Below are positions 1,464 to 15,860 of a DNA stretch of 64,000 nt, piece by piece. Origin of the DNA: Bryobacterales bacterium (lineage in GTDB: Bacteria; Acidobacteriota; Terriglobia; Bryobacterales; Bryobacteraceae); NCBI GenBank assembly GCA_020851555.1, contig JADZCM010000014.1, positions 59,636-123,635 of the forward strand. Reading direction: 5' to 3'. Both the position numbers and the translations under genes were made by a program. The notes below the pieces were generated by a model. That model was not told the origin of the DNA, made no database searches, and saw nothing but the letters and a program-made list of their open reading frames with translations. The first letter of the stretch is position 1; every line of letters starts with the position of its first letter.

Positions 1464-1622
1464 TTTGCGGAGGCGCGCGTTTCCATCCGGCAGTTCCTGG
1501 AGCAGGTCTATAACCGGAAACGGCTGCACTCCGCGCTGGGCTACGTGCCGCCGGCGGAGTTCGAGGCCGTCCTGCCAGCCAAGCGCAATGAGGAGGCCGC
1601 TACGCGGCGTCTTGGCTTATGA
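1464..1622 (+). pseudogene. IS3-family integrase (rve) C-terminal fragment, joined in frame to the IS1380 fragment
   Basis: FAEARVSIRQFLEQVYNRKRLHSALGYVPPAEFEA is the conserved C-terminal tail of IS3 OrfB transposases (YN..RLHSALGY..P.EFE). No catalytic DDE region lies upstream. Confidence 0.6.
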
Positions 1623-1869
1623 GTCTTTTTTGGCATCGGGAAATCTATCCATCCGATGGAGGCGCGATCGTTTCCGGTCGCGCCCCCGCTCATCGTCTGG
1701 ATGAGTTTCCGGCTGGTTATTCCTCGGCGGTTTGCTCTCCAGCAGCGACCGCCTCCGCTTCGCCAGCCGGCTTCCAGTATGCGGTACAGTTGTCTTGCGG
1801 GTCGAGGATTTTCCATCGAACGGTCACCAGTGTCTTAATCGGTTGTCTCACGCAAGGGGACAAGCGCAG

Positions 1870-2145
1870 ATGTTCATTGGCTACTCTCTGCCACCGTCCG
1901 ACATGCACTCCACGGTCCTGTTCCGGACCAGCGTTAAGCACGGGGGCCTGGACTGTGTGGTCGTAGTCAATCCTGACTCGGAGGCTAGGCGAAGAACGCG
2001 GGAGGTGCTACAGCGTGGAATCGGCGACAAGACCAGAGTTCTGAGTTTCGATGAGTTTGGCGAGTTCGCTAACGCCAGCCCAGCGCCCCTATCTGCGCTT
2101 TCGGCCGGTACCAAACCCAGGGCGAAAAAGACCACAACGAAGTGA
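1870..2145 (+). CDS. Hypothetical 91-aa ORF, possibly the C-terminal remnant of a larger gene
   Basis: The ORF runs from ATG at 1870 and begins MFIGYSLPPSDMHSTVLF...VVVVNPDSEARRRTREVL. The protein-like composition starts abruptly. The stop TGA (2143-2145) overlaps GTG 2142 and lies 12 nt before mcrB ATG 2157. No convincing N-terminal domain or RBS is visible. Confidence 0.25.
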   Translation: MFIGYSLPPSDMHSTVLFRTSVKHGGLDCVVVVNPDSEARRRTREVLQRGIGDKTRVLSFDEFGEFANASPAPLSALSAGTKPRAKKTTTK

Positions 2146-2156
2146 GGCAAGGCATA

Positions 2157-4541
2157 ATGGCTCCGGTTCTCTTCTTGAACGTGGGATGGATGAAGCTCTA
2201 TCAGGGCGAGTCGGCCGCACTGGCCAGCCCCGACCTTGACTTCTCAATGCTGAATTACCGGGAAGTCCATGGCAACTATTACGGCTACGGACAGATCGCT
2301 GGGAACAAGGTGAAGCTCCATAAGATCGGTGCTGACCCCAGCGCCGACCGGATGGAAGGTGTGACCGTCGTTTGGTTTTCCACGTCACCTGCTGGCAAGA
2401 AAGTCCTCGTCGGCTGGTACAGTAAAGCGACGGTGTTCCGGGACTATCAATCTCCGCCGCCAGGCTCTGGTCGGGAGATCAACGGAACCGAGGTGGGTTT
2501 CTACGCGGTTGCCAAAGTCGAGGACTGCCTGCTGCTTCCGGAGAACGAGCGGGTGTTCCCGATTCCGCGAGGCAAGGGCGGCAATGAACCAGTGCGGATC
2601 TGGTACGCCGATGAACCCGAGGACGAAGGCTACAAGAACAAGGTACTTGCCTATATCGCGTCGGGCGGCAAGGTGATACCGCCGAACCCGGCGGCGAATT
2701 CGTGGGTCTTCCAGGCGAACCCACTGTACTTCAACATCACGGACGCCGTCGAGAAGCTCACCAGCATGAGCTGGCTCGTCAGCAGGTACAAGGATCGGAT
2801 TGGCGCAGGCGATCATTTGTATCTATGGCGCTGCGGAGAGGACGCCGGGATCGTGGCGACTGGAACGGTCCTCACGGAACCCGCGCCGCTCCCCGAGAAC
2901 GAGGAGGAACTTGCCTTCGCGGTGCAGCCTGAGTATTTCAAGGGCAACGAGACCCGTGTCCGCCTCAACATCGAGCAAATTGTCAAGCCCGCGCTCCTGA
3001 AGACGGTTCTCAAGAGCGATCCCAGGCTGAAGGATCTTTCCATCCTGAACATCCGCCAGGGCACGAACTTCCCGGTTTCCGAGGATGAGGCCGCCGCGCT
3101 GGACGAGTTGATCGCCGCCCATCTGGAAGGCGGCGACGAAGTCCTGGAGGAAGGTGCCGCCAAACCCGAGGCGCGACCGACAGGCCGGGTCTGGGTGTAT
3201 GCGCCAGGGCCGAAGGCGAAGTACTGGGAGGAGTTCTACCGCGAAGGGATCATGGCAATTGGCTGGGACGACATCGGCGACTTGCGCCAGTACCCCACCC
3301 AGGAGACCGTCGCCAACAAGCTCATTGAGGTGTACCAGCCCAAGGGCTACCCCAAGAACGATTCGAGGGCCTGCTTCGATTTCGTTCACTCTATCCAACC
3401 GGGCGACCGCGTGATTGCGAAGAAGGGCTTGAGCGAGATGGTCGGCTACGGCGTCGTGGTCGGCGGATATGAACACCGACCGGATCGCGGCTACTACCAG
3501 AACGTCCGCCAGGTTCGGTGGGACGGGCGCGGGACGTGGCTTTGTGAAGGCGTATTCGCGATGAAGACGCTCACCGACTTCACGCCCTACCCAGACACCG
3601 TTGCCGGGCTGTACTCGATATTGGGTATCGAACCCGCCCAGGCGCCCCCGGAGCGGCCTCCGGCACTCCCGCGCTACACAGTCGATCAAGCGCTACAGGG
3701 CGTTGCGTTCGACCCGGCGGCGTTCGAGAACATCCTCCGCGTCTGGGAGAACAAGAAGAACCTGATCCTGCAGGGGCCTCCCGGTGTCGGCAAGACATTC
3801 CTGGCGCGGCGGTTGGCGTATGCGCTGATTGGGTACGAACTTCCGTCGCGGGTGGGGATGGTCCAGTTCCACCAGAGCTACGCCTATGAGGACTTCATTC
3901 AGGGGTACCGCCCCAAGGAGACCGGGTTCGAACGGCGCGACGGAGTTTTTGTGCGCTTCTGCAACCGGGCCAGAGCGGACCAGGACTCCCGCTACGTCTT
4001 CATCATTGACGAGATCAACCGGGGCAACCTCAGCAAGGTCTTTGGCGAGCTGCTGATGCTGATCGAGAAGGACTATCGCGGCAGCAAGCACTCCGTGACC
4101 TTGACCTACAGCGCGAAGGACGACGAGCAGTTTTACGTCCCGGACAACGTGTTCATTCTAGGCATGATGAACACGGCGGATCGCTCGTTGGCGCTGGTGG
4201 ATTACGCCTTGCGCCGCCGCTTTGCCTTCGAGCGCCTGAACCCGATGTTCGGCCAGCGTTCATTCAAGCAATTCCTCGCCAGTGGGGGAACGGACCCGGC
4301 GCTGACGACCGCCGTCTCGGATCGGCTGATCGAGTTGAACGAAGCGATTTCCGAAGACCCGAACCTCGGGCCAGGATTCTGCGTTGGCCACAGCTACTTC
4401 TGCCAACCTGGTCGGGCGCTGACCGCCACGAACTACATTGACGCGGTGAAGAACGAGATTCTGCCCTTGCTGGAGGAGTACTGGGTGGATGATCGCGACC
4501 GATTGGAGAAGTGGCGCGAAAAGTTACTGGCGAGCTTTTGA
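2157..4541 (+). CDS. mcrB: McrB-family GTPase (type IV restriction, AAA+ motor) with long multi-domain N-terminal extension
   Basis: The C-terminal roughly 290 aa carry Walker A GPPGVGKT (3774-3797), FHQSYAYEDFIQGYRP, Walker B FIIDEINRGNLSKVFGELL, and the McrB signature ILGMMNTADRSLALVDYALRRRFAF. The start could be GTG 2142 or ATG 2157. I chose ATG 2157, which has GAGG about 10 nt upstream. Confidence 0.9.
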   Translation: MAPVLFLNVGWMKLYQGESAALASPDLDFSMLNYREVHGNYYGYGQIAGNKVKLHKIGADPSADRMEGVTVVWFSTSPAGKKVLVGWYSKATVFRDYQSPPPGSGREINGTEVGFYAVAKVEDCLLLPENERVFPIPRGKGGNEPVRIWYADEPEDEGYKNKVLAYIASGGKVIPPNPAANSWVFQANPLYFNITDAVEKLTSMSWLVSRYKDRIGAGDHLYLWRCGEDAGIVATGTVLTEPAPLPENEEELAFAVQPEYFKGNETRVRLNIEQIVKPALLKTVLKSDPRLKDLSILNIRQGTNFPVSEDEAAALDELIAAHLEGGDEVLEEGAAKPEARPTGRVWVYAPGPKAKYWEEFYREGIMAIGWDDIGDLRQYPTQETVANKLIEVYQPKGYPKNDSRACFDFVHSIQPGDRVIAKKGLSEMVGYGVVVGGYEHRPDRGYYQNVRQVRWDGRGTWLCEGVFAMKTLTDFTPYPDTVAGLYSILGIEPAQAPPERPPALPRYTVDQALQGVAFDPAAFENILRVWENKKNLILQGPPGVGKTFLARRLAYALIGYELPSRVGMVQFHQSYAYEDFIQGYRPKETGFERRDGVFVRFCNRARADQDSRYVFIIDEINRGNLSKVFGELLMLIEKDYRGSKHSVTLTYSAKDDEQFYVPDNVFILGMMNTADRSLALVDYALRRRFAFERLNPMFGQRSFKQFLASGGTDPALTTAVSDRLIELNEAISEDPNLGPGFCVGHSYFCQPGRALTATNYIDAVKNEILPLLEEYWVDDRDRLEKWREKLLASF

Positions 4542-4553
4542 GGCCGACGCGAC

Positions 4554-5576
4554 ATGGCGATCCCGGTTCAGAACATCTACTACCTGCTCTGCTACGCCTG
4601 GGATGAGTTCGCGCCGAAGCAGTTGGAGAAGATCGCGACCGAGGAGTTCCCCGACGCTGTTCACTTGTTCGCCCGGCTGCTGGCAACCGGGGTGCGGTCA
4701 CTACACCAGCGTGGCTTTGAGACGGGCTACGTGACCCTGGAGCAGGTAACCAGTTCGCCGCGTGGCCGGATCATGATGGCCGAGACTCTGCTGCTGGTGG
4801 CGACTCAACCAGCGCGGGTCTGCTGCACTTTCGACGAAATGAGCGTCGACGTCCTGACCAATCAGATCCTGAAGGCGGCCCTCCGCCGCATCCTCGACAC
4901 GAAGGATTTGGACCGGAACCTGAGGGCCGAGGTGCGGTCGGCGTGGCGGCTGTTCGACCAGGTCGGCGACATCGATTTGACGCCCCGCGTGTTCTACAAG
5001 GTGCGGCTCCACCAGAACAACCGCCTGTACGCATTTCTGATCAACGTGTGCCGCTTCCTGTTCGACTCGCTCCAGCCTCTCGACCACGCGGGCGGGTACA
5101 GGTTCCAGGATGTCCTGCGGGAGCCAGAACGCCTGCAGCGAATCTACGAGAAGTTCGTGCGGAACTTCTATCGGCGGTGCCAATCGGTGTACACCGTCAA
5201 GCGCGACCGCATGGACTGGGCCGGCCAGCCGCTGGACGGCGCGGACTTCTCGCTGGTACCGCAGATGGAGACCGACGTGACGTTACGTTCGCCGTCGCGG
5301 TGCATCGTGGTGGAGTGCAAGTACACGGAGTCCATCTACCAGCAGAACTACTTCAAGGGGAAATTCCGGTCGGGCCACCTCTATCAGCTCGCGGCGTACC
5401 TCCAGAATCTGGAGACGAACTCGGAAGGCATCCTGCTCTACCCGACCGCCGGGGTGGCCGTGGATCAGAGCTACATGCTGCACGGCCACCGGGTGAGGAT
5501 GACCACGCTGGACCTGGACCGACCATGGCCGAAGATCGCGGCGTCGCTGATGGCGTTGGTGGAGAGCGCTAACTGA
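4554..5576 (+). CDS. mcrC: McrC nuclease subunit of McrBC
   Basis: 340-aa ORF starting 12 nt after mcrB. The N-terminus NIYYLLCYAW is typical of McrC. A C-terminal PD-(D/E)xK-like motif is present (METDVTL...IVVECKYTE). Confidence 0.85.
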   Translation: MAIPVQNIYYLLCYAWDEFAPKQLEKIATEEFPDAVHLFARLLATGVRSLHQRGFETGYVTLEQVTSSPRGRIMMAETLLLVATQPARVCCTFDEMSVDVLTNQILKAALRRILDTKDLDRNLRAEVRSAWRLFDQVGDIDLTPRVFYKVRLHQNNRLYAFLINVCRFLFDSLQPLDHAGGYRFQDVLREPERLQRIYEKFVRNFYRRCQSVYTVKRDRMDWAGQPLDGADFSLVPQMETDVTLRSPSRCIVVECKYTESIYQQNYFKGKFRSGHLYQLAAYLQNLETNSEGILLYPTAGVAVDQSYMLHGHRVRMTTLDLDRPWPKIAASLMALVESAN

Positions 5577-5714
5577 TTCACGCCGCCGCCTGGTCCAGAA
5601 GCAGAAGGGACCGGGTCTCACACGAGTCTCCGGCCCAATCCCACCACTCTGCCAGGCTCATCCGGCGGCACGATGTGCTCACCCTGTCCGTGCCGCTGGT
5701 CCGGGCGCTCACCT

Positions 5715-6308
5715 TCATGATTGTGCCCGGCGGTTGAAATTACTTAGTAGCGGGTAGTTGCCGGTGCTGTAGATCATCTCCCCACCCGGCGCCGCGACCA
5801 TGGGCCGCCGCAGCACGTACCGCACCCAGTTGGGGCTCAGCACCCATGCGCCATAGTTGCGGATGCTGGTGGACTGGAGCCCCGAACGCATGGTCAGCAG
5901 GTCTTCGATGGTGATGGCCCGCCTAGCGGAATCGAGCGGCTCAGTGAAGTACGGCGCTATCGGCGCCTGGGCGCCCGGGATCAGCCCGCGCTCGATGGCG
6001 ATGCCCACCAGCGCCGAGATCACGCTCTTAGACGCCGACTTGATGTTGGCGGGCGTGCCGGCGCGCGCCCCGTGGAAGTAGCGCTCCAGGACCAGCTTGC
6101 CCTGCCGGCTCACCAGCAGGCTTCGCAGCCGGGGCAATCCGGCCGCCGCTTTGCCGATCCCTTCGATGTCCGCTGCCGCCGCGGGCAGAGCCGCGAGCAG
6201 CAAGAGCCCCCACTTGAGACCCCGGGAAAACGGTCGTAATCCCCCCGCAGGCCGCACATGGCCCGGCGTACGCGCAGGAGAACCGGCCGGTCCCGCCGTC
6301 TGCTTCAT
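5715..6308 (-). pseudogene. Serine hydrolase / beta-lactamase-family protein, 3'-truncated
   Basis: It runs from ATG 6308 (MKQTAG...), with a signal-like LLLLAALPAAAA. The motif SASKSVISALVGIAIERGLI (SxxK) and YSTGNYPLLS match the N-terminal half of class-C beta-lactamase/PBP4*-like hydrolases. The ORF ends after about 197 aa with the unrelated tail NFNRRAQS*, whereas family members are usually more than 330 aa. Confidence 0.6.
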
Positions 6309-9092: not shown

Positions 9093-12059
9093 CTACGGCC
9101 GGTCGTACGTCGTTGCAAAAACTGTGTCCGCCAGCCACTTGCGGAACGATGGGTTGTCGCTGAACTGCTTGAAAAGCTCGGTATGGTCGGACAGCAAATC
9201 CGTAACGACCCGCTGGAGCGCCTTGTCGTGCTCGATCCGGGCGTTCTGGCGGTCCGAGTGTTTCTGGGCATTCTGGTAAGCTTTGTCGGCCGCCACCTTC
9301 GCGGGAATCTCCTCCGCGATCACCTTCCGGATCTTATCCCCGTCTTTCCAGTCGATGTTCCCGAACTGCTCATTGAACGCTTTGATGATGTTGCTCAAGC
9401 GGTCCATTTCCGCCTCTGGCTTGAACCCGCCACCAGAAGTCGGCACCGGACCGATCTCGGCGTTCTGGTCGGGCAAGGTGACCGAAATGGCCGCCTGGAC
9501 TTCCGGCCGGTAGCTGTCCATATCGATGGCTTCGAGGATGCCCTTCGACAGATCGTCCTCACGCGGAGCGGGCAGTTTCGGGATGAGGAAGTTCAGAAAG
9601 ACGGATAGCTTCTCCCATGCCGCGTTGTTGTAGGGCAGGATGGAGCCCAGAAAGCCGTAGGTCCGCACGAACGCCTTCGCCTTGCCCTTGAAGTCGACCT
9701 GGCCATCTTCATCGAGATCGGCGATGTACCCAGCGACGCAGGCGTCCAGAATCGGGTCGAGTTTGTCGCGGCTGGCGCCGGTCACGTAAAGCCCGACCAG
9801 TTGCTCCACCTGCGCCCACGAGTACACCTGGTACCCCTCCAGCGTGGCTTTCAGGTCGTGGAGCTTGTTCGGGTCGGTTTCCTCGCTCAGGATCGTGGTC
9901 CGGTAATATGGCTCGAACGCCTTCTGGATCGTCTCCGCGTCGTTAGCAAAGTCCAGAACGAAGGTGTCGTGCTTCTTCGGGTGCGCGCGGTTCAGGCGCG
10001 ACAGCGTCTGAACGGCCTTGATCCCGGATAGCGTCTTATCGACGTACATCGTGTGCAGCAACGGCTCGTCGTAGCCAGTCTGAAATTTGTCGGCCACGAT
10101 CAGAAAGCGGTATGGGTCCTCCTGGAAGCGGTCGGGAATCTGCCTGCTCGGAAACCCGTTAAGCGACGCTTCCGTGACGGGCTTACCGGCATACTGGTGT
10201 TCTCCGGAGAACGCGACGATGGAGCGGTAAGGGCTTTTCTGCTCGCGCAGGTAATCCTCGAAGGCGTGGAAATACTGGATGGCGCGCTCAATGCCGCCCG
10301 TCACCACCATGGCGCGCGCCTGGCCGCCGACCTTCCGGTACGCCATCACGCTGTCGGTGAAGTGGTCCACCATGATCTCGGCCTTCTGGCGGATCGCCTG
10401 CTCGTGAGACTCGACGTAACGGCGCAGCTTGGCGCGCGCCTTCTTCGTGTCAAACTCCGGGTCGTCGGGCACCGTCTTCGCCAGCCGGTAATAGCTCAGC
10501 ACCGGCGTATAGCTGCGCAGCACATCCAGGATGAATCCCTCCTGGATCGCTTGTTTCATCGTGTAGGAATGGAAAGGCCGGTGCTTGACCTTGCCGGCTT
10601 CCTCGAACGCCTCACCGAACGTCTCAAGCGTCTTGTTCTTCGGGGTTGCGGTGAACGCGAAGTAGCTCGCGTTCTTCAGCATCTTCCGCGATTCCATGAT
10701 GCGGTTGATGACGTCTTCGGGGGTTTCCTCCTCGTCACCACCGCTATCGGCGGTCAGGGCGATGTTCATCTTGGCCGCCGTCCGGCCGCCCTGGCTCGAA
10801 TGCGCTTCGTCTATGATGATGGCGAACTTGCTGCCGCGGTGCTCGTCGCCGATTTCATCGAGGATGAAGGGAAACTTCTGGACCGTGGTGATGACGATCT
10901 TCTTGCCGGACGCGAGGAACCGCCGCAGGTCACCGGAACTCTCGGCGTGTCCCACCGTTGCCGATACCTGCGCGAACTGCTTGATGGTGTCGCGGATCTG
11001 CTTGTCGAGGATGCGCCGATCAGTCACCACGATTACGGAATCGAAAACCGGGGCCCCATGCCGCAGCAACCCAATCAACTGGTGCGCGAGCCAGGCGATG
11101 GAGTTGCTCTTGCCGCTCCCGGCAGAGTGCTGGATCAGGTAGCGCTTGCCGACGCCGGTGACCACGGCGTCCGCCAGGAATTTCCGGACTACCTGAAGCT
11201 GGTGGTAGCGCGGGAAGATCTGGCGGCGCTTCCTGCGGCCGCGGTCATCCTTCTCTTCCGTCGTCTGTGCGTAATTTTCGATGATGTCGGTGAGGCGTGC
11301 GGGCGTCAGGATTTCCCGCCAGAGATAATCGGTCTTCACGCCGTTCGGGTTGGGCGGGTTGCCGGCGCCATCCTCGAAGCCTTTGTTGAACGGCAGGAAC
11401 CACGAGTCCTTGCCGGCCAGGCTGGTGCACATCCGGACTTCCTGATCGTCAACGGCGAAATGCACCGCGCAGCGGCCGGTCTCGAACAGGAGTTCCTTCG
11501 CGTCCCGGTCCCGTTTGTACTGCTCCACCGCGTCTTCGACGGTTTGCTTGGTCAGCCGATTCTTGAGTTCGAAGGTGGCGAACGGCAAACCATTGATGAG
11601 GACGGCCATGTCCAACGCGAGTTGGCCCTCGTCCTTGCTGTAGCGCAACTGGCGCGTGATGCTGAAGATGTTGGTCCGGAACAGGTCCTCGCTGCGCTTG
11701 TTGCCAGGCGTAGGGGTGCCGTAGAAGAGGTCGACCGAATCCGCGGGGCCGTGTTTGATCCCGCGCCGCAGGACATCGACGATGCCGCGCTTCGAGATCT
11801 CTCCCTGAAGCCGGTGCAGGAACTGGAGCCGCTTCGGGCCGTCCTCTCCGATCCCGAGGGCTTCCACGGTCTTCGGCTGGGTTGCCTTGAGGAATTCGAG
11901 TAGTACCGTTGGGTCGACGGCGTGATCGCGGTCAAAGTCCGAAGGCTCGGTCTGTCGGTAGCCAGCCTCATCGACAACGGACCCCACGATAAGTGCTTCC
12001 AGTCCCTTCTCGCTGGTGTCGCTGACCAGCTTGGGTCTAGATGGGCTAGTCGTCTGCAA
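9093..12059 (-). CDS. hsdR: Type I restriction endonuclease subunit R
   Basis: 988 aa. It has an N-terminal nuclease region, SF2 helicase motifs (IQHSAGSGKSNS, IIIDEAHSSQGG, FTATP, QTLSRLNR), and a C-terminal helical domain typical of HsdR. The start overlaps hsdS by 14 nt. Confidence 0.92.
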   Translation of the reverse strand: MQTTSPSRPKLVSDTSEKGLEALIVGSVVDEAGYRQTEPSDFDRDHAVDPTVLLEFLKATQPKTVEALGIGEDGPKRLQFLHRLQGEISKRGIVDVLRRGIKHGPADSVDLFYGTPTPGNKRSEDLFRTNIFSITRQLRYSKDEGQLALDMAVLINGLPFATFELKNRLTKQTVEDAVEQYKRDRDAKELLFETGRCAVHFAVDDQEVRMCTSLAGKDSWFLPFNKGFEDGAGNPPNPNGVKTDYLWREILTPARLTDIIENYAQTTEEKDDRGRRKRRQIFPRYHQLQVVRKFLADAVVTGVGKRYLIQHSAGSGKSNSIAWLAHQLIGLLRHGAPVFDSVIVVTDRRILDKQIRDTIKQFAQVSATVGHAESSGDLRRFLASGKKIVITTVQKFPFILDEIGDEHRGSKFAIIIDEAHSSQGGRTAAKMNIALTADSGGDEEETPEDVINRIMESRKMLKNASYFAFTATPKNKTLETFGEAFEEAGKVKHRPFHSYTMKQAIQEGFILDVLRSYTPVLSYYRLAKTVPDDPEFDTKKARAKLRRYVESHEQAIRQKAEIMVDHFTDSVMAYRKVGGQARAMVVTGGIERAIQYFHAFEDYLREQKSPYRSIVAFSGEHQYAGKPVTEASLNGFPSRQIPDRFQEDPYRFLIVADKFQTGYDEPLLHTMYVDKTLSGIKAVQTLSRLNRAHPKKHDTFVLDFANDAETIQKAFEPYYRTTILSEETDPNKLHDLKATLEGYQVYSWAQVEQLVGLYVTGASRDKLDPILDACVAGYIADLDEDGQVDFKGKAKAFVRTYGFLGSILPYNNAAWEKLSVFLNFLIPKLPAPREDDLSKGILEAIDMDSYRPEVQAAISVTLPDQNAEIGPVPTSGGGFKPEAEMDRLSNIIKAFNEQFGNIDWKDGDKIRKVIAEEIPAKVAADKAYQNAQKHSDRQNARIEHDKALQRVVTDLLSDHTELFKQFSDNPSFRKWLADTVFATTYDRP

Positions 12060-13389
12060 CGGCCGCCTCCTCTGGAACTTCCGATTCGTCTATCCCGGCG
12101 CTCAAATCTTCATCGCTTTCGTCAATTCTGTCGGCGATCAAAGGGACCTCGTCGCCAATCATAGCCTGCCGTACATCCAACTTGCCCGTAACGAGATCCG
12201 CAAGCACATCATTCCAGTACTCTCGAATTGCCTGGGCGGTACGGATGAACGAATCGTTCATTTCGGCTTCAAGATGGACAATCTCCGCGATACGGCATTG
12301 CTCGGAATACGCTGGGACGGGAATCTTTTCCTTCAGAAGCGTCCGCACGTTTAGCGGCCGGTTTCGCCCAGCCGCTCCTCGGGAATGCTGGTCTAGTAGA
12401 AACGTGCCGAACTGGGTCCGGAAGAATGCCAACAGAAAGGGACATGAAATCATGTCCCCTCGGCCCAGCAGGACGGGGTATCGATGGGAAACAACGCACC
12501 CAGAATCTTGCGGACGGGCGAGCGCAACAGCGCCCTCCCAAGCGAACTGCCCGCTAATGACCAGGTCCCCTTCCTCGATCCAATAAAAGCTGGAGTCGCC
12601 CAGGTCTGCTCCCCTCGTCGACTCCTTATGGAACATTCCGCGTCCCCTGTTGAATAAGCCTATTGGTGTGTAGATGTGGTCACTTTCGCGTTCGACCGGC
12701 CGCTCCACTATTGTCGTCACGACGCCCAGGCGCATACTCTTCGTTTGAGGAGCACGCGCCGCTTCCTCGGTCATCGCTCGGCACAACTCCCGTACAGCTA
12801 GCACTTGTTTCTTTTTCGCGCTGATGAAGCGGCGGACCAACTGATCCTGCGCGGCAATGAAACGAACAATCTGGTCCTGTTCTTCGCGGGGCGGACATGC
12901 GATGGGAATATCCAGAAACTTGTCCGGATAGAGCCTAAACCGAGAACTTCGAATCCCAGTTGACCGACATACATATTCGGATCGGTACGGCTCCGTCCGA
13001 AGCAGAACATCCACGTAGTCAGCTGAGAGGTGCTGGCCATCAACCGGCCTGTACACGCCGTATGACGGGCTGACCACACCGGTTTGCCTGGCTACGCCCA
13101 GAGCCGCCATCCAAGCCCACATCGTGTTGATGACCAGGTCACCTTGATGGCAGAGTTTGTGGCCAACGTATGACTCAGCCTCGAACATTGTGACGTTCTT
13201 CTGTCTGCGTGGAGTAACTCCCGTTAGATGCGATACCGAGAGCATCTCCTCCTCACCGGTCTGTGACCGCTCATCGATTTCTCTGAAGTACTCCTTGGCA
13301 CGGTGTTCTTCCCAATGCGCCGGTATTCGCCCGAGCCAAGGCAAGCGGGACGACTTGTAATTGGGATACGGCTTCAGACCATCGACCAT
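12046..13389 (-). CDS. hsdS: Type I restriction-modification specificity subunit S
   Basis: 447 aa. The N-terminus ...LPWLGRIPAHWE and two target-recognition-domain-like halves separated by conserved helical spacers (QDQLVRRFISAKKKQ..., AEIVHLEAEMNDSF...) fit HsdS. The ATG shares one nt with the hsdM stop (TAATG). Confidence 0.85.
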   Translation of the reverse strand: MVDGLKPYPNYKSSRLPWLGRIPAHWEEHRAKEYFREIDERSQTGEEEMLSVSHLTGVTPRRQKNVTMFEAESYVGHKLCHQGDLVINTMWAWMAALGVARQTGVVSPSYGVYRPVDGQHLSADYVDVLLRTEPYRSEYVCRSTGIRSSRFRLYPDKFLDIPIACPPREEQDQIVRFIAAQDQLVRRFISAKKKQVLAVRELCRAMTEEAARAPQTKSMRLGVVTTIVERPVERESDHIYTPIGLFNRGRGMFHKESTRGADLGDSSFYWIEEGDLVISGQFAWEGAVALARPQDSGCVVSHRYPVLLGRGDMISCPFLLAFFRTQFGTFLLDQHSRGAAGRNRPLNVRTLLKEKIPVPAYSEQCRIAEIVHLEAEMNDSFIRTAQAIREYWNDVLADLVTGKLDVRQAMIGDEVPLIADRIDESDEDLSAGIDESEVPEEAAVADD

Positions 13390-15530
13390 TACCGCGCTCC
13401 CACGATTCGGGCCAGGAGGCCTTTGGACTCATCTTCGAGCGCATAGAGTTCCGCCCTGATCTCCTCCAAACTTCTCGTCTGCTCGGGTTTGTAGAAGTAT
13501 CGGGCGAACACGATTTCATACCCGATGCGGGTTGCCCCTTCGTCGATCCAGGCGTCCGATAGATGCGGTAATACCTCGCGGCGGAAGAAGGCTTCGATGC
13601 CGCCGTCTTCGAGCAGCGGAATTTGCTCGGAGTCCTTGAAGGCAGGGTCAGGTTCGAACTCGATCAGGACGGAGCGCCCATCCTTCTCCCGGAGATAGCG
13701 GCCATAAAGGACTTCCCGTCCCGCGTCCAGGTCCTTTCGCGCTTTGGTTTCCTTCCGGATGACCGGTTCCGCGCTGTCATCCTGTCTGGTAAGTTCGGCT
13801 CGGACTAAGGCGGTCCGCTTCGCCGTCAGTTTAAGGCCGGCATCTTCGGCCGCTGCCTCGACCTGAGCGAGAAATGCGTTGTAATCGAGGTGCGGTCCCG
13901 GCCCGAGCTTGGCCCCCACAACGTCTACAACCGTCGCCAGCGCGTCGTCCTTCGCTGCTGAACAGAGGCTCCGGAATCGGCGCAGCGCCTCGGGAGACAA
14001 GTCCACACGCAATCGCAGCGGGCGGCGGACCCGAATCTTCCAATACCCGAACTCCTCGCGGGGAAAGATCTTCGACTGCTCGGACTCCTTGAACTCAACG
14101 AGCGCGGCCGCGATTCGCTGGATGTCGTCCTCGGTGAGTTCACAGTTCTTCTTCCCGAGGTTCTTGCGGAGCGGCCGGAACCAGGTGGTCGCGTCGATCA
14201 GTTGCACTCTGCCCTGGCGGATCTCCGGTTTCCGGTTGCTCAAGACCCATATGTAGGTCGCAATTCCGGTGTTGTAGAACATGTTCAGCGGCAGCGCGAT
14301 GATGGCCTCCAGCCAGTCGTTCTCGATGATCCAACGCCGGACGTTGCTTTCGCCGGAGCCGGCGCCGCCGGTGAAAAGGGAGGAGCCGTTGTGGACCTCG
14401 GCGATCCGGCTGCCGAGAGCCGTGTTCTGCTTCATCTTCGAAACCATGTTCACGAGGAAGAGCAGTTGGCCGTCATCGGAGCCCGTGACCATGCTGTACT
14501 CGGGATCGCCGGCATGATCGATGATGAAGCGCGAATCCTTGATCCCGCTTTTTCCGCCCATGCGTTCGAGGTCGATTTTCCAGCTCTTCCCGTACGGAGG
14601 ATTGGAGAGCATGAAATCGAACTGCCGCGAGCGGAATGCGTCCTGGGACAACGTCGAGCCGTGCTGGAAGTTCTCCGCCTCCTCCCCTTCGCCTTTGAGC
14701 AGGAGGTCGGCCTTGCTGATGGCGTAGGTTTCGGGCTGGCTTTCCTGTCCGTAAAGGTGGATCGACACCTCTTTCCCGTGCTCTGCGGCCAGCCGCTTCA
14801 AAGTCTCCTCAGCGACGGTCAGCATTCCACCCGTTCCGCATGCGCCGTCGTAGACCGCGTAGGTGGTGGATTCGATCTGGTCCGCGACCGGCAGGAAGAT
14901 GAGGTTCGCCATGAGCTTCACCACGTCGCGGGGCGTGAAGTGCTCGCCGGCCTCCTCGTTGTTGTCTTCGTTGAATCGCCGGATCAACTCCTCGAAGATG
15001 GTACCCATCGCGTGATTGTCGAGTCCCGGCAGGCGGACCGTTCCGTCCGGATGCATGACCGGTTCCGGACTCAGGTTGATCGAGGAGTCCGTGAATTTCT
15101 CGATAAGGCTCCCGAGAATATCGTTCTCGACGAGCGTGGGGATTTGATTGCGGAATTTAAATTTGTCGAGAATTTCAGCGACGTTCGAGGAGAAGCCTTC
15201 GAGGAATGTTTCGAAATCGGCCTTGAGCTGCTGGGCTTTGGCGCGGGAGCGCAGGTCGCGAAGCGTGAACGGCGACGCGTTGTAGAACGACTGGCCGGCG
15301 GCCGGGCGCAGAGCTCCATCCTGGTTGGCAATACCCGCCGCGTCCAGGTTGGCCTTCATGTCGAGCACGGTCTTCTTTGCAGGCCCTTCGAGGACGGCGT
15401 CGAGCCGCCGGATGACGGTCATCGGCAGGATTACGTCCCGGTACTTCCCGCGGACATAGATGTCGCGGAGAACGTCGTCGGCGATCCCCCAGATGAAGTT
15501 CGTAATCCAGTTGAGTTGACTTTGATCCAT
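13389..15530 (-). CDS. hsdM: Type I restriction-modification N6-adenine DNA methyltransferase subunit M
   Basis: HsdM_N-like start MDQSQLNWITNFIWGIADDVLRD. SAM motif I is YDGACGTGGML and catalytic motif IV is NPPYG (FDFMLSNPPYGKSW). The ORF is open up to 15617, but homologue-like sequence begins at ATG 15530. Confidence 0.9.
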   Translation of the reverse strand: MDQSQLNWITNFIWGIADDVLRDIYVRGKYRDVILPMTVIRRLDAVLEGPAKKTVLDMKANLDAAGIANQDGALRPAAGQSFYNASPFTLRDLRSRAKAQQLKADFETFLEGFSSNVAEILDKFKFRNQIPTLVENDILGSLIEKFTDSSINLSPEPVMHPDGTVRLPGLDNHAMGTIFEELIRRFNEDNNEEAGEHFTPRDVVKLMANLIFLPVADQIESTTYAVYDGACGTGGMLTVAEETLKRLAAEHGKEVSIHLYGQESQPETYAISKADLLLKGEGEEAENFQHGSTLSQDAFRSRQFDFMLSNPPYGKSWKIDLERMGGKSGIKDSRFIIDHAGDPEYSMVTGSDDGQLLFLVNMVSKMKQNTALGSRIAEVHNGSSLFTGGAGSGESNVRRWIIENDWLEAIIALPLNMFYNTGIATYIWVLSNRKPEIRQGRVQLIDATTWFRPLRKNLGKKNCELTEDDIQRIAAALVEFKESEQSKIFPREEFGYWKIRVRRPLRLRVDLSPEALRRFRSLCSAAKDDALATVVDVVGAKLGPGPHLDYNAFLAQVEAAAEDAGLKLTAKRTALVRAELTRQDDSAEPVIRKETKARKDLDAGREVLYGRYLREKDGRSVLIEFEPDPAFKDSEQIPLLEDGGIEAFFRREVLPHLSDAWIDEGATRIGYEIVFARYFYKPEQTRSLEEIRAELYALEDESKGLLARIVGAR

Positions 15531-15860
15531 TGATTGTCCGTAACCACCAGGAGGTTCTTGCAGGAACATCTCCCCTGCGCGCCGGGTGTATGGCGCCGAA
15601 CCCTCCAATTGGCTCAAGTCCTTACTTTATTGCATTGCGCCGGGGTGCGCACGTGAGGCAGGGCCGATGGGGAAAGCGACAGCACCCCACCGGGGCGGTT
15701 GCCGTGCCACATGCATATCTGATAGAAAACAAAATCGGTTCCTGCTAGCAGTACTGTAGCGATCCGCGAGAGTGCATGGGGCACATCCGGCTGGGTAAGT
15801 TACCGCGAACACGAAAGTGGCAGCAGGTCGTCGGTCTCCTGGGCTCCGGGGCTGGTACGC

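Follow-up and report, generated by a model that had tools for sequence, protein, structure and literature searches.

McrBC is the textbook system of modification-dependent restriction, and among its relatives the choice of target is known for a handful of single heads. The enzyme of E. coli K-12 (EcoKMcrBC) carries one 5-methylcytosine (5mC)-binding domain of ~160 amino acids (aa), DUF3578/MrcB_N, in front of its AAA+ GTPase and lid. In other McrBs, an EVE domain is found N-terminal to the GTPase. This is the commonest EVE fusion, and such proteins often carry additional domains that were left undefined in the survey describing them (Bell, Wolf and Koonin 2020, BMC Biol, PMC7641849). Here we analyze an mcrB gene at positions 2157–4541 (plus strand, stop included) of a 64,000-nucleotide window from a Bryobacterales bacterium (contig JADZCM010000014.1, positions 59,636 to 123,635). 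Its product lacks the DUF3578 reader and has instead ~505 aa with three unrelated or distantly related domains: an unnamed module A, an EVE domain (module B) and a DUF8426 domain (module C). We think, with somewhat better than even prospects, that additive, exchangeable reader heads have widened the range of targets of this Type IV restriction system.

The McrBC kind is already known, while for the A-EVE-DUF8426 architecture we found no described precedent. The order appears neither in the EVE survey nor in the McrBC census of 2024, where specificity domains were left to be classified later (PMC11090510). A literature search, which did not extend to subscription journals, returned no description of an A-EVE-DUF8426-McrB, of the function of DUF8426 or of module A. 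This agrees with the first-pass annotation of the window, made from the sequence alone, which knew of no characterization of this architecture and had mentioned single EVE-McrB fusions from surveys; the latter are indeed reported in PMC7641849, and our locus differs from them in that the extra domains can be resolved into a DUF8426 between EVE and motor and an exchangeable outer head.

Two other groups of enzymes are comparable. The archaeal McrBs studied by Hosford, Chappie and colleagues (as cited in PMC7641849 and PMC12707154), the YTH-McrB of Thermococcus gammatolerans and the PUA-like McrB of Staphylothermus marinus, have a PUA-superfamily N-terminal head, a general fold that module C shares, but one head per subunit instead of three. 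Module C also differs from these archaeal heads in having no sequence-level match to any solved structure, and the motor is far closer to E. coli McrB (E 1e-98) than to that of T. gammatolerans (E 1e-38). The second group comprises single-chain enzymes such as McaZI (DUF3427-DUF3883; Lutz et al. 2019 NAR, PMC6765204), whose layout of a sensor plus a DUF3883 PD-(D/E)XK nuclease dominates the module A family as well, and YenY4I (PUA-DUF3427-DUF3883; PMC6765204), which has two putative modification sensors in one enzyme, an arrangement called 'relatively rare'. Module A, however, is not DUF3427, and these enzymes are single-chain and nucleoside triphosphate-independent, whereas here three heads would sit on a GTP-driven hexameric motor.

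The McrB motor and the McrC nuclease

The motor, which had been placed at nt 3675-4538, occupies aa 506–794 (3672–4538, plus strand). It aligns end to end with the AAA+ domain and lid of E. coli K-12 McrB (residues 166–457, E 3e-98). Pfam AAA_5 (aa 535–689, E 2.6e-27), the NCBIfam McrB model PRK11331 (aa 506–792, E 4e-100) and E. coli McrB structures (aligned with aa 497–792) locate it in the same way. The Walker A motif GPPGVGKT (aa 540–547, 3774–3797) and the Walker B motif IIDEINR (aa 616–622, 4002–4022) align with the same motifs of the E. coli protein, and MNTADRS (aa 671–677, 4167–4187) lies opposite MNTADRS, so that the McrB-signature NxxD is present. RRRF is found at 4212–4223, and the arginine finger is kept. 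The equivalog test of PRK11331 nevertheless failed: the score was 335.6 bits against a cut-off of 637 and covered profile positions 167–457 only, because the N-terminal third of the model, that is DUF3578, is absent from our McrB. A Pfam search of the protein likewise found no match to MrcB_N/DUF3578 (PF12102). Judged from these alignments, the protein has the same motor as EcoKMcrB but is not its equivalog as a whole.

The mcrC gene (4554–5576, plus strand) starts 12 nt past the mcrB stop and encodes a 340-aa nuclease subunit (Pfam McrBC, E 8e-29; NCBIfam McrC, E 3.6e-95) that can be aligned end to end with residues 5–342 of E. coli McrC (E 1e-55). The D...ExK catalytic motif is kept (METDV at 5265–5279 and VVECKY at 5307–5324); the second acidic residue is Glu (ExK) here and Asp (DxK) in E. 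coli McrC. All catalytic motifs of motor and McrC are thus intact in the alignments with the K-12 proteins, and the mcrB-mcrC operon and a Type I hsd system nearby are further points of likeness. By sequence, we assign the system to the E. coli-type (NxxD clade) McrBCs, with an orthodox engine.

The three N-terminal modules

The N-terminal 505 aa consist of three conserved modules with fast-drifting linkers between them. The prediction of three such units was borne out, with boundaries within a few codons and all quoted peptides present. The linkers had been described as rich in Pro, Glu and Ala. This is true of the acidic B-C linker (aa 316–343, 3102–3185, plus strand), which is rich in Glu, Ala and Gly, and of the Pro-rich linker between C and the motor (aa 476–505, 3582–3671, plus strand; 8 Pro in 30 residues), but modules A and B are joined by only ~10 residues (KVIPPNPAAN, 2673–2699, plus strand). 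In pairwise comparisons of nine full-length A-B-C orthologues, the motor is on average 69% identical, modules A, B and C reach 61%, 53% and 66%, and the B-C and C-motor linkers only 30% and 38%, respectively. Since the heads are so much better conserved than the linkers, the three-module layout is not due to chance. All three heads appear to be under constraint, nearly as tight as that on the motor, and the linkers drift.

Module B (aa 182–315, 2700–3101, plus strand) is an EVE domain, as the earlier call of an EVE/PUA-like fold implied. It matches PF01878 with 41.5 bits (cut-off 23, E 1.7e-10) over profile positions 1–142 of 145. A search of PDB sequences with module B as a single sequence returned nothing meaningful.

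Module C (aa 344–475, 3186–3581, plus strand) corresponds to DUF8426 (PF28530). This new Pfam family is assigned from a precomputed match, which is present on the identical protein P0001 and on all orthologues. The module had no match in the local Pfam, NCBIfam or PDB-sequence profile searches; among PADLOC models, it resembles the N-terminal part of the candidate PDC-S02 (E 8e-16). An AlphaFold (AF2) model based on 36 sequences reached a predicted local distance difference test score (pLDDT) of 94.3 and a predicted TM score of 0.88. Almost all of its top 50 Foldseek matches were YTH domains (Mmi1, YTHDF1-3, YTHDC1/2) or the EVE-like PH1033 and MJECL36, with a probability of 1.00 and E values of 2e-4 to 5e-3, at modest TM scores of 0.40–0.49. 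The model thus predicts with high confidence a YTH/EVE-type fold of the PUA superfamily, in line with the PUA/EVE-like fold suggested before. Residues W8, W19, W32, Y100, W117 and W123, in the numbering of the module, are invariant or nearly so, which is indirect evidence for a possible aromatic cage around a flipped modified base. An hhalign comparison of B with C showed weak profile similarity across the GD-x-V...G hairpin (E 7e-5, probability 63%).

Among the nearest structural neighbors of module C are YTHDF2 and Mmi1, which are eukaryotic readers of N6-methyladenine (m6A) in RNA, and numerous examples are known of EVE/YTH superfamily domains that bind modified RNA (PMC7641849; PMC11090510). 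The YTH/EVE-like heads could therefore read modified RNA (tRNA, rRNA or phage transcripts), with the enzyme acting on RNA or RNA-DNA hybrids as proposed for the CoCoNuT relatives of McrBC. We consider an RNA-directed system highly improbable. With its NxxD motif, the motor groups with the E. coli-type clade and not with the NxD clade of the CoCoNuTs (PMC11090510), and a domain search found no coiled coils, HEPN domains or other RNases in the system. Moreover, McrC has an intact DNA-type PD-(D/E)xK site and a near full-length match to E. coli McrC, and the partners of the module A family are the DNA nucleases HNH and DUF3883. An archaeal YTH-McrB is also reported to bind m6A DNA (cited in PMC7641849).

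Module A (aa 1–172, 2157–2672, plus strand) is an unnamed beta-rich domain and a candidate sensor, with the motifs LFLNVGWM, YYGYG, VGWY and PRGKGG..IWYAD. No Pfam (E up to 10), NCBIfam or PADLOC model matches it. When 1.84 billion representatives were searched exhaustively with its profile, 2,288 cluster representatives were retrieved at E<=1e-3 and 1,764 at E<=1e-10; this search superseded an insensitive word-indexed homologue search with module A alone, which had yielded 2 proteins from 40 candidates. The family is found in Acidobacteriota, Chloroflexota, Firmicutes, Proteobacteria, Cyanobacteria, Saccharibacteria and Zixibacteria as well as in Methanobacteriaceae and Thaumarchaeota, and RefSeq names its members 'DUF3883 domain-containing protein', 'HNH endonuclease' or 'hypothetical protein'. 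In the best 149 representatives, the domain is most often joined to DUF3883/NOV_C, a PD-(D/E)XK nuclease (83/149), less often to HNH (15/149), and rarely to McrB (2) or HSDR_N (1); ~26 representatives are stand-alone proteins of roughly 190 aa. The first-pass annotation had linked module A to the N-termini of HNH/type IV enzymes. The position at nuclease N-termini was correct, but the usual partner is DUF3883 rather than HNH. One member of the family, the 460-aa P0116, has an additional N-terminal domain that by eye looks like EVE/ASCH (…YLVNWNPKRW…GDRLFLVRQ…GIIGSGHAV…), followed by A and then HNH, and may be another two-sensor single-chain enzyme.

DUF3427 (PF11907), the sensor of SauUSI and McaZI, matched neither the query nor any of the 149 representatives at E<=1e-3, and an assignment to SBD or SRA was unsupported by Foldseek and Pfam. 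The AF2 model of module A was built on an alignment of 10 sequences and has a pLDDT of 75.8. Nine of its top 15 Foldseek PDB matches were EVE, YTH or ASCH domains (1zce, YTHDF2, VcaM4I, PH1033), with E values of 0.07–0.6 and TM scores of 0.32–0.45. Foldseek had been proposed as a check on all three segments; it succeeded for C, but for A the best E value was 0.07, and the model points only weakly to a PUA-like fold. The idea of three paralogous PUA domains is not supported for module A, since hhalign detected no profile similarity of A with B or with C. A Foldseek search of viral predicted structures (BFVD) with module A gave nothing significant. The profile search of PDB sequences gave a single match, to photosystem I PsaD (8zo9_d, E 1e-3), over 74 columns (module A aa 75–148, window 2379–2600). 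This is probably a chance match, as it has no functional or structural support.

The module A copies fused to McrB differ from the rest of the family. A Glu that is conserved in 97% of the nuclease-fused family (motif G-x-E-I-x-N-F) is replaced by Ser in our protein and in 8 of 12 other McrB-fused copies, and most of the remaining copies are gapped at this position. The subgroup containing our protein is without the D...GG loop and has GNEPVR in place of GMGQSN; the altered sites are aa 28–30 (window 2238–2246) and aa 144–147 (window 2586–2597). Such differences at several of the most conserved family positions might mean that head A is a decaying, non-functional passenger, gained by fusion with a neighboring A-type nuclease gene, and that the enzyme in practice works as one of the common two-headed EVE-DUF8426-McrBs. 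The loss of the loop fits this explanation, as do the pLDDT below 50 of the D...GG-loop region in the model and the frameshifts in two A-B-C loci of reference genomes described below. However, A is conserved like B among the A-B-C orthologues, far above the linkers, and 37 of its positions are invariant across 10 sequences with identity down to 43%. The Glu-to-Ser exchange, common to most of the McrB-fused copies, looks like a maintained variant and not random decay, and A-headed proteins occupy at least four places on the tree of the common chassis (see below). Decay of head A is thus improbable in our view and, like RNA targeting, one of the less likely explanations.

Exchange of heads and a model of target recognition

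A homologue search for the A-B-C order, which had been suggested as something to check, turned up about nine intact genes in metagenomes (48–84% identity) and five partial or disrupted ones. All those that could be placed taxonomically came from Acidobacteriota. The mcrC gene lies directly next to the A-B-C mcrB in all three contexts examined, and the gene pair recurs in independent contexts (L001/L002 and L003/L004). One copy, that of L003, is located inside a mobile element with IS66, integrase, ArdC and VapE, and no record in the plasmid collection had the A-B-C arrangement. In L003, a 393-aa protein without Pfam match (4765–5946) ends 4 nt before mcrB; a conserved third gene 5' of mcrB can be rejected, as this protein has no counterpart in the window. 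A close homologue on a 5.3 kb JGI contig (P0003, 765 aa) diverges abruptly just past Walker A, and in the divergent part a motif like GIY-YIG can be seen (…FYVYAY…PFYVGKGCGNR…). Either a homing endonuclease may have inserted into this motor gene, or the contig may be chimeric through assembly.

More common than the three-headed form are two-headed EVE-DUF8426-McrB proteins of ~620 aa. Other three-headed proteins have MrcB_N/DUF3578 (~830 aa) or Mrr_N as outer head; MrcB_N is present in the sister proteins P0009, P0011 and P0017-19. In a neighbor-joining tree of the B-C-motor region, the A-, MrcB_N- and Mrr_N-headed and the two-headed proteins interleave, and the A-headed ones appear at no fewer than four places. 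The nearest full-length relatives of our protein, P0009 and P0011, are 70–76% identical to it in B and 80–82% in C and have MrcB_N where it has A. DUF8426 is always the motor-proximal head, whether it is preceded by EVE, by DUF8425, by MrcB_N and EVE or by Mrr_N and EVE. A DUF8425-DUF8426-McrB occurs inside an hsdMSR-mcrBC operon. Single-headed McrBs exist as well: P0189 has module A and no other head, and P0070 apparently has DUF8426 alone. Taken by sequence and tree, these proteins indicate a conserved EVE-DUF8426-motor chassis with an exchangeable outer head that has repeatedly been swapped among A, MrcB_N and Mrr_N. In the 841-aa P0079, the order is Mrr_N-DUF8426-EVE, with C before B and thus the reverse of the window, on an ATPase without a McrB_lid match; the same heads appear to be reused there on another motor.

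We propose that the locus encodes a two-gene, GTP-dependent, modification-dependent McrBC system that belongs with E. coli K-12 to the NxxD clade. If the solved structure of the E. coli complex is taken as a guide, the motor would form GTP-bound hexamers, and McrC would plug the hexamer, stimulate GTP hydrolysis and supply the PD-(D/E)xK nuclease; DNA would be pulled in and cut when translocation is blocked. In place of the single DUF3578 reader of E. coli McrB, three autonomous domains on flexible linkers would provide 18 heads per hexamer, three for each subunit. Each head could recognize a different modified base and so hold the motor on the DNA in which this base occurs. The heads would add up (OR logic) instead of being jointly required, so that a wider range of modified phage or plasmid DNA would be restricted. 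The EVE-DUF8426 pair would then be the conserved, motor-proximal chassis and the outermost head an exchangeable specificity cassette.

That the heads look like readers follows from the EVE identity of B, the YTH/EVE-like fold of C and the mostly nuclease-fused state of A; their reading of one modified base each is what we infer from the domain partners. Additive logic is suggested by the gain, loss and swapping of heads on the same chassis. It is also suggested by McrBs that have A or DUF8426 as their single head, by the literature in which EVE-McrB is the commonest EVE fusion, and by the pairing of A alone with nucleases, like that of the sensors of the DUF3427-DUF3883 and PUA-HNH enzymes, which are validated modification-dependent enzymes (PMC6765204).

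The main rival holds that DUF8426 is a loading domain and that one or two heads give the specificity. In its simplest form there is one true reader with accessory domains, which means a division of labor and not three specificities: the modified base would be read by one head, most likely EVE, DUF8426 would be a constitutive DNA-loading or clamp domain by which any reader is coupled to the motor, and A would sense a non-polymer ligand such as a free modified nucleotide or regulate the enzyme. We regard this one-reader arrangement as rather unlikely, though less so than RNA targeting or a decaying head. The invariably motor-proximal place of DUF8426, whatever lies upstream, would fit it, as would the fact that this is the most conserved of the heads. 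A DUF8426-bearing McrB that shares its operon with an m6A methylase of Type I (L034) points in the same direction, because general m6A reading by a YTH-like domain would be expected to be self-toxic there. The loss of the near-invariant family Glu in the McrB-fused copies of A agrees with it too, and a 2026 preprint reports a PUA domain that senses free m6-dAMP and not DNA (10.64898/2026.01.15.699771). On the other hand, DUF8426 also matches the N-terminus of PDC-S02, which is not a McrB, and lies N-terminal to EVE on the different ATPase of P0079, so that it appears to be a portable module and not a McrB-specific adaptor. Likewise, A stands alone in front of the motor in P0189, and it is the one domain besides the nuclease in hundreds of DUF3883/HNH enzymes, which is the signature of a target-recognition domain.

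Several points weigh against our preferred model of additive reader heads. The fold assignment of module A is weak, given the Foldseek figures and the 10-sequence model, and A shares no profile similarity with B or C. The McrB-fused copies of A deviate from the nuclease-fused majority at the most conserved family positions, and its pocket could be altered or weakened in our protein, to judge from the sequence. Several of the 'two-headed' proteins in the tree might be truncated versions, as their contigs are short. The sole two A-B-C loci in GTDB representative genomes are frameshifted (L011 6001–8446 and L012 6001–8428); these are long-contig 'MFD' metagenome-assembled genomes (MAGs) of Terriglobia and Acidobacteriaceae with one and four frame changes, respectively, and the frame changes could reflect pseudogenes or indel sequencing errors. 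The constant place of C next to the motor would fit a structural or loading role as well. Binding and cleavage by A, by DUF8426 and by this EVE subtype are predictions. Overall, the interpretation given in the first-pass annotation was supported, and each of its parts held to the extent that it could be tested.

More tentatively, and on balance doubtfully, module A might be a large unnamed sensor family for a mark outside the range of SRA, EVE, YTH, DUF3427 and DUF3578, for example a hypermodified pyrimidine, 7-deazaguanine or a backbone modification, and the Acidobacterial A-EVE-DUF8426 McrBs might be three-channel detectors. If so, the sensor family would comprise at least 2,288 clusters at 50% identity in bacteria and archaea, and the outer channel of these McrBs would be swapped as phages change their DNA modifications in an arms race. 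The more valuable leads are the natural series of head swaps and the family of module A, which has no name so far. On one nearly identical motor, the series comprises two-headed proteins and three-headed ones with A, the classical 5mC reader or Mrr_N, and it makes additive, cooperative or hierarchical action of the readers directly testable. Two uncharacterized candidate readers are flagged, DUF8426 and the module A family, the latter dominating many single-chain enzymes of the DUF3883 and HNH types that apparently lack annotation. Novel domains that read modified bases would serve epigenomics as tools and help to predict the phage resistance of a host.

The mcrB start and the genomic neighborhood

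The 794-aa McrB is encoded from ATG 2157 within an enclosing open reading frame (ORF) of 2142–4541 (plus strand). ATG 2157 is likely the true start, because the N-terminal motif is kept, another call of the same gene (P0260) likewise has 794 aa, and a Shine-Dalgarno-like GAGG/AAGG stretch lies 5–13 nt 5' of it. The motif, M-x-P-[VIL]-[LI]-F-[FL]-N-V-G-W-M, forms the N-terminus of every full-length homologue. The GenBank entry MCC7174326.1 ('MAG: EVE domain-containing protein [Bryobacterales bacterium]') has 783 aa and begins at MKLYQG (window 2190), 11 codons past the conserved start MAPVLFLNVGWM (window 2157–2189). Judged by the homologues, the GenBank protein lacks 11 N-terminal residues, and the first conserved strand of module A is cut short. 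A scan of 1500–6000 found no sigma-70-like promoter, and terminator-like sites at chance level, but such a scan is uninformative for an Acidobacterium.

A complete Type I restriction-modification system lies 3.5 kb from mcrBC on the minus strand (9093–15617), which we report as context only. It consists of hsdR (9093–12059; Pfam HSDR_N, SWI2_SNF2, T1R_D3), hsdS (12046–13389; Methylase_S, E 1.5e-5) and hsdM (13389–15617; Pfam N6_Mtase, HsdM_N). This neighborhood fits an E. coli-type McrBC, since that branch is reported to be associated with Type I systems (PMC11090510). Between mcrBC and the hsd genes are a beta-lactamase-like fragment, a CBM96 protein and an SGL-family protein, and the rest of the window has ordinary chromosomal content.

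Upstream of mcrB are two insertion sequence remnants, a partial DDE_Tnp_1_4 transposase (771–1391) and an IS3/rve-like C-terminal peptide (~1400–1600, frame 0). They are followed by an ORF of 137 aa without Pfam match (1732–2145, …MFIGYSLPPSD…), which may resemble the C-terminal end of a SIR2-like protein.

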